A DNA stretch of 54,783 nt from Lachnospiraceae bacterium UBA1778 (GTDB lineage: Bacteria; Bacillota; Clostridia; Lachnospirales; Lachnospiraceae), in contig DCGM01000106.1 in the NCBI GenBank assembly GCA_002315255.1, forward strand, positions 9,064 to 63,846, written 5' to 3'. Of the stretch, positions 36,571-41,487 are shown in pieces. Within the stretch, counting starts at the first letter, position 1. Each line of letters begins with the position of its first letter. The translations under genes and the position numbers were made by a program. The notes under the pieces are model-generated. The model did not search any database. It saw nothing but the letters and a program-made list of their open reading frames with translations, and was not told the DNA's origin.

Positions 36571-37361
36571 AGTGTACCACCCCCTTGTGTTTTTTCTGTT
36601 AAATCAAGGACATTTTCTGCATTTTTTTCAGAATTTTCCTCGTTTTTTTCTGCTTTTTCCTCGCTCTTTTCTGCTTTGAACGCAGCTGCGAGGCGAAGAA
36701 GCTCTTCCGCCTCTTCTTTCGACAGTTTCGGGCCGGTTTCTTCAGTTTCGCCGTTCTCTGCCTTCTCCTTCTCTGCCGCCTCACGATACTGGCGGGCAAA
36801 GTCCTTCGCGTAGAAGAAAATGATCAGCATGACCGGCATGACGACAGCTGAAATGAAGCCCATCGGCGTCATGACGAAGCCAATGAGTGTGCCGAGCCCG
36901 GTCAGTTCGCCGGTATGGAAAACGACCTTGCCGTAGATCTGGGCATAGGTGACGCGCGCTTCATCCGCAGTATTGTTCGCATCGCCCTTCGTGATAAAGA
37001 TCGGGTTTCCCTGCGAATCCTTACCGTCCGTGCCAATGATGCGGTGCGTGTTTGCCTGCCCTAAAATCGCAGCGTCAGAAGAGCTGAACGTGATAATGTC
37101 GTCCAGCTGATAAGACGTCTCTTTATGGACGAGCGCCGCAGAACCGGAATGGATCGTCGGTTCCATACTGCCCGTCACTACATAGAAAAACCGATAGCCG
37201 AAGATGGCAGGCTCCTGTCCGGTCGCATTCTTTACCATCAGAATCATTGAAATGCCGACGGTAATCACTAAAATGACCGTGACGAAGCCGGAGAGGATCT
37301 TTTTGATCCACTCCTTCGGCGTCAGCGTCTTCTTTTCTTTTTTACTTTTTGAACAATTCAT
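36567..37361 (-). CDS. sipW: SipW/Sec11-type (S26B) signal peptidase I with a K/E-rich C-terminal tail (264 aa from the preferred start)
   Basis: The preferred ATG at 37361 gives MNCSKSKKEKKTLTPKEWIKKILSGFVTVILVITVGISMILMV (basic region plus TM). The 45 extra codons in the ORF track overlap the upstream CDS and are Arg/Lys junk.
- Ser box VVTGSMEPT.
- His box THRIIG.
- ITKGDANNTADE.
- Second TM GFISAVVMPVMLIIFFY.
- Then ~70 aa of cytoplasmic EKEKAENGETEE...EEAEELLRLAAAFKAEKSEEKAEK. Confidence 0.85.
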   Translation of the reverse strand: MNCSKSKKEKKTLTPKEWIKKILSGFVTVILVITVGISMILMVKNATGQEPAIFGYRFFYVVTGSMEPTIHSGSAALVHKETSYQLDDIITFSSSDAAILGQANTHRIIGTDGKDSQGNPIFITKGDANNTADEARVTYAQIYGKVVFHTGELTGLGTLIGFVMTPMGFISAVVMPVMLIIFFYAKDFARQYREAAEKEKAENGETEETGPKLSKEEAEELLRLAAAFKAEKSEEKAEKNEENSEKNAENVLDLTEKTQGGGTL

Positions 37362-39795: not shown

Positions 39796-41487
39796 TTAAG
39801 ACATCTTCTGCATACGCTCCAGGTATTCCTTACAGATCTGGAAGTTCTGCTTACCGAATGCCTTATCGAGATAAAGCACGAACTTATGGAGTTCGTCCTT
39901 GATGAAGCCCATGTTCAGGGATTCAAACTTACGAAGGATCTTCTTCGCAATGATGAAGTCGAGACCATCCAGCTCTGTACCGCCGCAGGCGATAAAGCAC
40001 GGGACGAATTCACGTAACTGCTTCATAATACGGTTACCGAACGCGAGACGGAAGTGCTTGATGACGTATGCGTCCATTTCATCCAGCTTCTTCATATTCT
40101 CGGCCGATACCGGGTATTTCTTCTTCGCTTCCGCGAACATCTCGGAAAGATGCTTTGCGGTTACATAGACCGGGTCTGCGTCTTCGCAGGTAAACGACTG
40201 CGCCTTCGAATCCAAGTCGATCGGGATAGCACGGTCGTAGACCTTATCTGCAACTGCGAATGTGGAGTCATCGTTGTTGATGGTTCCGACGAACCAGGTG
40301 TTGTCGTTTACATGGACCTTACCGCCGTTGATCAAGCACGGGTCATTGTCCCAGGTGGTCGTGACGATATCGACGAGCCACTCCTCCGGTCGCGGCATTT
40401 CGAGGACGGAAAGCATTTCTGCGAAGTAGTACTCGACACGCGCGATGTTCATTTCATCGAGGATGATGATATGCGGATCTTTATAGTAGTTCGCCTCGTA
40501 GATAGCGCGGAGGAAGTCCGTTTCATTGAACATACGGGTGAATTCGTTAAAGTATCCGAAAAGCTCGGTACGTTCACGCCATGCCGGCTGAACGGCTGCA
40601 ACCGTCGTATCTAACTGCACATATTTACCGAATGAATACGGAAGGGAGGTTTTACCTGTACCGGAAATACCCTGTAAGATGATCATTCGGGAAGCGCCCA
40701 TGGACGCTACGAAGAAGCGCATGATGCTGATATCATAGAAGAGACGTAAGCGGGACGCTGCAAAGAGACGCCAGCGGTTACAGAACTCTTCCAATGTGAT
40801 CTCGTTATCGTAGACAGGCTCCTGATACTCGGTCTTATAGTAGTTATCAACCGTAGTAAGACGGAAGAAACGGCTCGTTTCAGGCGCAATCGGCGGTGAA
40901 TCCGGCGTATTCCGCTTGCCGTCGGCCGTATGGCCCTCGTCTCCGTGCGCTTCGCTGCTTCCGCCTGCTCCGCCACCGCCGGAGCCGCCGGCTCCGCCGA
41001 TACCTCCGAGTCCTGCGACGCCTTCGGTCACGTCTGCGCCGTTTCCGGAAAGCTCTGCCGCAATCTTCGACTGGCCCTCGAGATCCAGAATGTCGGTTCT
41101 CGCCTCCATGCCCATCTCAGCCACCTTCATAGCGAGAATCTTATCCTTCTCGTAATTCAGACGGAAGACTTCACGGTTCAGCTTCGCGACTTCTTCCTTC
41201 ATCCGCTCATACTCTTTTACCGGGACCTTGAAGGTCAGCATCTTTTTAATGAGCTTGATTAAGAAGAAAACGCCGACAGCAATGATGGCGATGAGAAGAA
41301 GGTTTTCTAAACCTACGAGAATCCAGCCCGGAACATCAAAATCCGGGGCATAGCTCTCGATGATCTTCATTCGCATCGGGAAGTTTAAAAGTGTATTCAG
41401 GAAATTAAAGATATCGATAAATATCTGGACAAAAGCTTCCCAGATCAATCCTAAATCCTGATAACAGTATTTCAGAAACGCATCCAT
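39796..41487 (-). CDS. Membrane-anchored McrB-family (COG1401/AAA_5-type) AAA+ NTPase (563 aa from the preferred start)
   Basis: The preferred ATG is at 41487 (GGAG plus 5 nt); the ORF-track start is at 41538.
- N-terminus has two hydrophobic segments (LGLIWEAFVQIFIDIFNFLNTLLNF; WILVGLENLLLIAIIAVGVFFLIKLI followed by KKMLTFK).
- Then a coiled-coil (EYERMKEEVAKLNREVFRLNYEKDKILAMK).
- Then a Gly-rich linker GLGGIGGAGGSGGGGAGGSS.
- Then the AAA+ core: Walker A GISGTGKTS and Walker B HIIILDEMN.
- The McrB-family signatures are LDEMNIARVEYYFAEMLSVLE and FVGTINNDDSTFAVADKVYDRAIPIDL. Confidence 0.8.
   Translation of the reverse strand: MDAFLKYCYQDLGLIWEAFVQIFIDIFNFLNTLLNFPMRMKIIESYAPDFDVPGWILVGLENLLLIAIIAVGVFFLIKLIKKMLTFKVPVKEYERMKEEVAKLNREVFRLNYEKDKILAMKVAEMGMEARTDILDLEGQSKIAAELSGNGADVTEGVAGLGGIGGAGGSGGGGAGGSSEAHGDEGHTADGKRNTPDSPPIAPETSRFFRLTTVDNYYKTEYQEPVYDNEITLEEFCNRWRLFAASRLRLFYDISIMRFFVASMGASRMIILQGISGTGKTSLPYSFGKYVQLDTTVAAVQPAWRERTELFGYFNEFTRMFNETDFLRAIYEANYYKDPHIIILDEMNIARVEYYFAEMLSVLEMPRPEEWLVDIVTTTWDNDPCLINGGKVHVNDNTWFVGTINNDDSTFAVADKVYDRAIPIDLDSKAQSFTCEDADPVYVTAKHLSEMFAEAKKKYPVSAENMKKLDEMDAYVIKHFRLAFGNRIMKQLREFVPCFIACGGTELDGLDFIIAKKILRKFESLNMGFIKDELHKFVLYLDKAFGKQNFQICKEYLERMQKMS

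Follow-up and report, generated by a model that had tools for sequence, protein, structure and literature searches.

We analysed a 54,783-nucleotide (nt) stretch of DNA from Lachnospiraceae bacterium UBA1778 (assembly GCA_002315255.1, contig DCGM01000106.1, positions 9,064 to 63,846 of the forward strand), hereafter the window. It carries two adjacent genes, which encode a membrane-anchored McrB-like NTPase and a partner with a putative McrC-like N-terminal domain, set among genes for SipW-type signal peptidases and secreted proteins. According to the open reading frame (ORF) list of the window, every gene of the region, both members of the pair included, lies on the minus strand. The pair and its parts are as follows, with residue numbers referring to the respective protein, TM standing for transmembrane and AF2 for AlphaFold2.

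39796..41487 (-): McrB-like NTPase, very probably of the CoCoPALM type, 563 amino acids (aa); called from the ORF, ribosome-binding site, homologues, and matches to McrB and PDC-M26A
41383..41454 (-): N-terminal helix of the NTPase, borderline-hydrophobic and conserved in sequence, residues ~12-35; alignment, Kyte-Doolittle hydropathy, AF2
41248..41328 (-): TM anchor at residues ~54-80 with a basic stretch after it; Kyte-Doolittle hydropathy and charge
41116..41229 (-): juxtamembrane helix or short coiled-coil, residues ~87-124; AF2 helix at 90-124
40828..41115 (-): disordered linker with a poly-Gly insertion, residues ~125-220; predicted local distance difference test score (pLDDT) below 50 for 126-220
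39799..40815 (-): AAA+ (McrB-type) NTPase domain with helical lid, residues ~225-563; invariant motifs, alignment to E. coli McrB, Foldseek
37342-39786 (-): partner ORF, 814 aa counted from TTG
38737..39786 (-): partner residues 1-350, putative McrC-like N-terminal domain (DUF2357); Pfam, homologues, AF2
38227..38736 (-): partner residues ~351-520, region with an ER/K-rich charged helix; composition
37342..38226 (-): low-complexity partner tail, Lys/Ser/Gly-rich and then acidic, including the stop codon; composition

The NTPase gene starts at ATG 41487, which is preceded by GGAG 5 nt before the ATG, and GTG 41538 is an unlikely alternative. For the partner, ATG 39771 with GGAG upstream is a more likely start than the TTG, which is why a first-pass annotation of the window had given the gap between the two genes as 9-24 nt. 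The junctions of the pair measure 24 nt (NTPase/partner) and 20 nt (partner/SipW); at the latter, the ATG of the signal peptidase SipW(a), at 37361, overlaps the last codons and stop region of the partner gene. Checked against the ORF list and the junction sequence, the coordinates and motifs quoted in the first-pass annotation for both ORFs are correct, and the 20-nt overlap, from which it had deduced translational linkage to SipW, is real. The SipW(a) frame also stays open for 135 nt upstream of its probable ATG, giving a 309-aa ORF (36567-37496 (-), from ATG 37496) with an Arg/Lys-rich leader wholly inside the partner gene and hence an alternative, much longer overlap; this long form is probably not translated. 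At least 575 species-representative genomes carry a relative and, since both genes are conserved across these species-level genomes, chance ORFs are ruled out.

The NTPase contains the motifs GISGTGKTS, IIILDEMNIARVEYYFAEMLSVLE and FVGTINNDDSTFAVADKVYDRA, whose core residues are invariant in 46 homologues (61-91% identity). Specifically, the alignment of these 46 sequences keeps Walker A (G273-I-S-G-T-G-K-T280), the D344-E345 pair of Walker B, and the whole signature G401-T-I-N-N-D-D-S-T-F-A-V-A-D-K-V-Y-D-R-A420, including N404-N405-D406-D407 and R419, without exception. The family is large, with at least 8000 homologous clusters at 90% identity, and the top 120 are all full-length and 58-89% identical to the NTPase. 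McrB is the sole family in the Protein Data Bank (PDB) that is matched, both by the single sequence in phmmer (1e-3) and by a profile (1.6e-4), and the alignment covers Walker A, Walker B, NTAD and RRR of E. coli McrB. The NCBIfam McrB model gives 18 bits, far under the 637 of its equivalog cut-off, and Pfam AAA_5, with 18.1 bits, also falls short of its threshold (22); some homologues have a precomputed PF07728 match. By far the strongest profile match is PADLOC PDC-M26A (8.8e-38, 128 bits); these 128 bits, set against ~20 bits for canonical McrB, suggest a non-canonical McrB branch. In the AF2 model (mean pLDDT 68.8) the AAA+ domain and lid lie mostly above 75 and the linker below 50. In Foldseek the model falls among AAA+ proteins of the MCM/RavA/McrB/BrxL/BchI group, with E. 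coli McrB (6hz4_E) at rank 5 and the highest identity, 18%. The predicted structure supports the AAA+ clade and does not by itself single out McrB. Judged from its sequence, the protein is an AAA+ NTPase of the McrB lineage with intact active-site residues, in agreement with the McrB-family membership proposed in the first-pass annotation.

That annotation had further described two hydrophobic segments and a membrane tether that would hold the motor at the inner face. We called TM segments with a 19-residue Kyte-Doolittle window at a threshold of 1.6. Segment 2 (~54-80) scores 2.7 here and at least 2.4 in all 46 family members, while segment 1 (~12-35) reaches 1.6 in just 17 of them; one TM segment is therefore certain and a second is possible. 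Segment 1 is modelled as a helix at 2-33 and has invariant G13, N35 and R39. The 15 residues after the TM segment have a median net charge of +5, and those before it tend to be slightly acidic on average. Under the positive-inside rule this basic stretch puts the motor domain in the cytoplasm, as the first-pass annotation had it. The helix at 90-124 ends in YEKDKxLAM, and Y112-M120 is invariant except for position 117 (I or L). The poly-Gly linker, previously listed among the features of the protein, does not hold as a family trait: the Gly-rich insertion GVAGLGGIGGAGGSGGGGAGG (residues ~155-178, window ~40954-41025 (-)) occurs only in this copy, and at its position the 45 aligned homologues have an acidic, much shorter linker. 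A search of the N-terminal 138 aa for FtsB/DivIC homology returned no Pfam match at E ≤ 10 (hmmscan).

The partner matches Pfam DUF2357 when its N-terminal 350 aa are searched (27.8 bits against a cut-off of 23.3, residues 72-169), as do 22 of 52 partner homologues; the full-length protein gives no Pfam match at E ≤ 0.01, and PF09823 is precomputed on many partner homologues in the database. DUF2357 is the N-terminal domain of McrC (Bell et al. 2024, PMC11090510). All 52 sequences keep Y139-E140-N141 of NTYENKF and L262 of KLWDF, so that the McrC-like landmarks picked out in the first reading are conserved. The AF2 model of this domain (pLDDT 76.8) has long beta-hairpins. Neither PD-(D/E)xK nor any other nuclease profile matches residues 169-364 or 351-814 at E ≤ 10, and PDB searches with the partner, by sequence and by profile, return low-complexity noise only and no nuclease, in line with the earlier remark that no nuclease core could be found. 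Partner length in the family ranges from 369 to 1026 aa, and the shortest orthologues, at 369 aa, barely exceed the N-terminal domain and leave no room for a further one.

These results also bear on another explanation of the pair, namely that it is a generic MoxR/RavA-like AAA+ chaperone with an unrelated helical adaptor, which folds or inserts membrane and secreted proteins and is not functionally derived from McrBC. The AAA_5 score under the cut-off, the placement of MCM and RavA above McrB in Foldseek and the absence of a McrC match for the partner in the same kind of search would fit such a chaperone. We nevertheless consider it highly improbable, as McrB is the sole PDB match by sequence and by profile, the partner exceeds the DUF2357 threshold, the two genes adjoin each other as McrB and McrC do (75/76 loci), and the VWA partner typical of MoxR systems was not detected.

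Beyond its N-terminal domain the partner has a region rich in charged residues. E, K and R make up 58-62% of residues 351-450 and about 60% of ~365-445, with no dominant heptad register, and their median share beyond residue 350 is 0.48 across the family. The K/E coiled-coil of the first-pass annotation thus stands as a long charged region, and a single ER/K helix fits it better than a classical heptad coiled coil. At their C-termini the partners of the family are basic (median +5 over the final 25 aa, at least +4 in 51 of 75). The protein in the window ends in the basic-amphipathic stretch KKRFGLFHELFKK (37342-37386 (-)), which resembles a membrane-targeting helix of the MinD/FtsA type; as a feature of the family this candidate was rejected, since it fits just 21 of 75 tails.

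A Lys-rich, histone-H1-like tail of this kind might bind RNA or DNA, and the pair could then be a nucleic-acid-directed machine at the membrane that tethers or remodels the operon mRNA for co-translational export of a giant protein, or handles DNA of the extracellular matrix. McrB-family motors do act on nucleic acids and the related CoCoNuT systems are predicted to target RNA; the partner has AAPKKAAPKKSSSKK-type repeats besides its basic end, and a 31-kb ORF follows later in the operon. Against this, profile scans recognise no nucleic-acid-binding domain in either protein, the tails are of low complexity and differ greatly in length (partner 369-1026 aa), and basic tails would bind anionic membranes equally well. 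The idea is purely speculative, and we regard it as very unlikely.

The pair lies within a cluster of genes, given here in the order of transcription:

47570..48988 (-): HD-GYP (HD_5) and EAL protein, first gene of the cluster; Pfam HD_5 1e-18, EAL 1.6e-15
46354..47556 (-): p400, an SFAW-protein paralogue that has a TM segment and, at its N-terminus, a cytoplasmic extension of ~110 aa; in 53/54 related loci
45248-46237, 43797-44867 and 42544-43800 (-): three secreted proteins with an 'SFAW' signal, putative fibre subunits; N-terminal TM segment, then SFAW(Y/L/F)(T/S)
41679..42467 (-): SipW-type signal peptidase (b), directly upstream of the NTPase; NCBIfam SipW 8.5e-32, TIGR02228 above cut-off
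36567..37361 (-): SipW-type signal peptidase (a); NCBIfam SipW 7.8e-27, TIGR02228 above cut-off
35911-36570 (-): SFAW protein, downstream; ORF
34036-35754 (-): 572-aa secreted protein, downstream; ORF
32315-34039 (-): third SipW, which continues into a fused C-terminal domain of ~400 aa; TIGR02228 1.1e-23, residues 27-160
945..32231 (-): giant secreted protein of 10,428 aa (31.3 kb), last gene of the cluster; single ORF with a Sec-type signal peptide

We annotated the neighbourhoods of 82 related loci with the window proteins as queries; the survey covers the 80 best loci (at least 45% identity), recognised through family-specific peptide patterns, and more distant relatives may sit elsewhere. 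Carriers of a relative include Oscillospiraceae, Lachnospiraceae (among them Lachnospiraceae bacterium 10-1) and Ruminococcus (the cultured R. albus KH2T6), together with metagenome-assembled genomes (MAGs) labelled Bacilli, Erysipelotrichaceae and Mycoplasmatota. The partner adjoins the NTPase in 75 of 76 loci. Directly upstream of the NTPase stands a SipW or SFAW-type gene in 73 of 75 loci, and SipW itself in 60 of them. Where the flanks are complete, 53 of 54 loci have SipW, SFAW proteins, p400 and the partner all present with every match on one strand, which answers the question posed in the first-pass annotation about what homologues sit beside, and the HD-GYP/EAL gene heads the cluster in 41 of the 54. 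A large ORF on the same strand follows downstream in 48 of 58 loci, and giant genes called at the equivalent position code for 9,482 aa (locus L001) and 12,418 aa (L002). The conserved order is HD-GYP/EAL, p400, SFAW proteins, SipW, NTPase, partner, SipW, more secreted proteins and a very large surface protein. The NTPase is the best-conserved gene of this operon, with a median identity of 52%, compared with 40% for the partner N-terminal domain and SipW(b), the secreted proteins, p400 and HD/EAL being at 23-33%. A scan of IMG/VR viral contigs yielded no relative. In gut Clostridia the pair thus belongs to a conserved operon as a fixed component, co-oriented and tightly coupled.

Fixed position, slow evolution and absence from viral contigs point to a core component of the machine and not to a mobile defence cassette. 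The first-pass annotation had left a choice between exaptation for envelope or fibre biogenesis and a new defence module inserted in the operon, and a gene order fixed across Oscillospiraceae, Lachnospiraceae, Ruminococcus and Bacilli MAGs favours the former, with the pair as an integral operon component. As an immune module, the pair would be a CoCoNuT-like NTPase and activator that protects the fibre apparatus, which is likely to serve phages as a receptor or entry site, and that acts at the membrane or recruits an effector encoded elsewhere upon infection. McrBC and the CoCoNuTs of the NxD branch serve defence or are predicted to do so, the best profile match is the PADLOC defence candidate PDC-M26A, and the basic partner tail could bind nucleic acid. 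PDC-M26 is one of 145 "guilt-by-embedding" defence candidates, which are untested predictions (bioRxiv 10.1101/2024.01.29.577857); only its component A is matched here, and the partner has no PADLOC match at E ≤ 0.1. Moreover, profiles detect no nuclease, HEPN or other effector in the partner. Nuclease-less McrC homologues of CoCoNuTs always come with another nuclease (Bell et al., PMC11090510), and this constant companion was not detected in the operon genes that were profiled (the giant protein lay outside the scan). A position fixed across families, with the NTPase as the slowest-evolving gene, is also the opposite of the mobility and turnover usual for defence genes. An immune role is accordingly unlikely.

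All three SipW paralogues of the operon match TIGR02228 above cut-off, with E values of 4.8e-17 to 8.5e-32 for the SipW model. Two of them have charged or Ala-rich C-terminal tails of 60-70 aa after the second TM segment, cytoplasmic by SipW topology, and the ~400-aa C-terminal domain of the third ends in an acidic (T/E/D/P)-rich repeat. The description of the secreted neighbours as TasA-like finds no profile support: for none of these proteins did single-sequence searches or a 21-sequence profile give a match to TasA, camelysin or any other family of Pfam, NCBIfam (E ≤ 10) or the PDB (phmmer), and just the SFAW-type motif after the anchor resembles SipW substrates. The SFAW proteins form a family of their own, with (S/T)(F/Y)(A/G)W(Y/F/L)(T/S) after the signal anchor, and WLEGxDxDC lies near the C-terminus of the 418-aa and 356-aa members and of p400. 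The p400 protein, which is without the SFAW motif, shares this C-terminal IWLEGxDxDC and aligns with the secreted SFAW proteins in hhalign (probability 98%, E 1.2e-13); it could be an uncleaved membrane anchor or a fibre base subunit. The HD-GYP/EAL gene suggests control of the whole cluster by cyclic di-GMP. In the giant protein, L(N)xLT(G/F)GLFFN occurs 9 times between residues 2411 and 8632, ~500-1500 aa apart, a recurrence that points to repeated modules of very large size. The cluster is preceded upstream by genes for a 237-aa K/E/A-rich protein with C-terminal TM segments (49037-49750 (-)) and a repeat-rich surface protein of 1,321 aa, anchored by a TM segment at its C-terminus (50638-54603 (-)).

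The architecture of the pair, which the first-pass annotation took to be new, has already been described: CoCoPALM was named in 2024 for an McrB-like GTPase of the NxD branch fused to an FtsB-like domain with TM and coiled-coil helices (Bell et al., PMC11090510). The same work gives the class one paragraph, mentions its association with signal peptidases and the coiled-coils on both the McrB and the McrC homologue, and defers the analysis; it also states that E or a second D usually follows the NxD signature. The pair agrees with this description, with reservations over the NxD signature and the FtsB homology. The invariant I-N-N-D-D-S fits NxD followed by D, and an ungapped alignment to the NTAD of E. 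coli equally allows NxxD. The TM segment (46/46) and helix (90-124) are present, the correspondence being one of architecture only, as the search for FtsB homology gave no match. On both sides the pair has a SipW gene as its neighbour, a signal-peptidase link that holds in 53 of 54 full-flank loci, and helical regions occur on both proteins, at 90-124 of the NTPase and over at least ~100 E/K/R-rich aa of the partner. The pair is thus very probably a CoCoPALM, and as such another member of a class already named. A search by name of the library used found no later paper on CoCoPALM, the text of the Bell et al. supplement adds no CoCoPALM details, and searches for McrB with SipW, or for SipW with Ruminococcus and pili, found nothing relevant. 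Relative to the main text on CoCoPALM, the present analysis adds the operon order (with three SipW, p400 and HD-GYP/EAL), the frequent link to a very large gene downstream and the conservation rank of the NTPase. It also contributes the universal TM segment, the basic partner tails, and secreted neighbours without TasA profile support.

Taking these findings together, we lean towards the view that the pair is an NTP-driven biogenesis motor or switch at the inner membrane face, which serves the export or assembly of fibres and adhesin and not restriction. By analogy with McrBC, the NTPase would form a hexameric ring, and the DUF2357 domain of the partner would plug this ring and stimulate nucleotide hydrolysis as McrC does for McrB. 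The motor would hang from the inner membrane face on its short helical stalk and flexible linker. With no nuclease as output, hydrolysis may, as the operon context hints, be turned into work of a mechanical or conformational kind at the membrane, which would power or gate export, processing by SipW, or the assembly of fibre subunits and giant adhesin. Transmission might run via the TM/stalk bundle, the long helix of the partner, or both, to the cytoplasmic part of p400 and the SipW tails. Candidate contacts are the ~110-aa N-terminus of p400, the 60-70-aa tails of the two SipW proteins, and the membrane itself through the basic partner tail.

Several points weigh against this view. The role in fibre and adhesin biogenesis is assigned through guilt by association, and to our knowledge the TasA fibres of Bacillus assemble without any ATPase. 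The putative relationship of the partner to McrC is based on sequence profiles, with a modest Pfam score, and on gene adjacency; a Foldseek search of its N-terminal domain model against the PDB gave no McrC, the best E value being 0.15, and an inactivated PD-(D/E)xK remnant fold may lie within residues ~170-340. For the NTPase, Foldseek does not separate McrB from MCM or MoxR. The reach of the neighbourhood survey, beyond which relatives may occur in other settings, counts here as well, as does the top profile match of the NTPase to an untested defence candidate. Finally, CoCoNuTs, the nearest described relatives, are predicted defence systems (PMC11090510).

If the biogenesis role is true, it would show how an immune NTPase module can come to be used in cell-surface assembly, and it would offer a way into the question of how such large proteins are exported and displayed by monoderm bacteria. 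We consider it quite possible, while stopping just short of favouring it, that full exaptation has made the McrBC motor the dedicated energy source or gate of SipW-dependent fibre assembly and of the display of proteins of about 10,000 aa and above in hundreds of gut Clostridia species. Such full exaptation would be the first non-defence, non-nucleic-acid function in the McrB lineage and would define a new class of Gram-positive surface-assembly machine. The class is widespread, many of its carriers being gut and rumen Oscillospiraceae, Lachnospiraceae and Ruminococcus, and it adjoins some of the largest bacterial genes known.

Compared with known systems, the operon resembles tapA-sipW-tasA of B. 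subtilis in coding for a dedicated SipW together with substrates that have an aromatic-rich motif after the signal anchor, but the Bacillus system has no NTPase or giant adhesin, and the substrates here have no detectable TasA similarity. The likeness to PilB/GspE of type IV pilus and type II secretion systems is one of analogy only: a hexameric cytoplasmic NTPase, as predicted here, at the membrane amid fibre subunits processed by a signal peptidase. Those motors belong to the PilT/VirB11-type superfamily and work with a prepilin peptidase and a platform, whereas here the NTPase is of the AAA+ McrB type, the peptidase is SipW (S26 type), and no platform was recognised. For the SipW-dependent BsaA matrix proteins of C. 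perfringens, type IV pilus-associated proteins have been proposed to be required for crossing the peptidoglycan (PMC11580942). With McrBC type IV restriction (E. coli; PDB 6HZ4, 6UT6) the pair shares the AAA+ motifs (Walker A/B, Asn/Asp signature, Arg cluster), an adjacent partner with an McrC N-terminal domain and, presumably, a hexamer plugged and stimulated by that partner. It differs in the TM anchor that replaces the DNA-binding N-terminal domain, in having no detectable PD-(D/E)xK, in its non-defence context, and in sequence, with only ~18% identity to McrB. CoCoNuTs (CnuB/CnuC) likewise combine an McrB-like NTPase, there of the NxD branch, with long helical regions, and their McrC homologues are often without an active nuclease (PMC11090510); they are soluble, always with HEPN or other nucleases, and have a predicted RNA target, in contrast to the TM anchor, the lack of detected nucleases and the secretion/fibre setting found here. 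From CoCoPALM we see no essential difference, the two having in common an McrB-like NTPase with an N-terminal TM/helical module, an adjacent DUF2357 partner with long helical or charged regions, and signal peptidases; the N-N-D-D signature found here is compatible with the NxD(D/E) variant.

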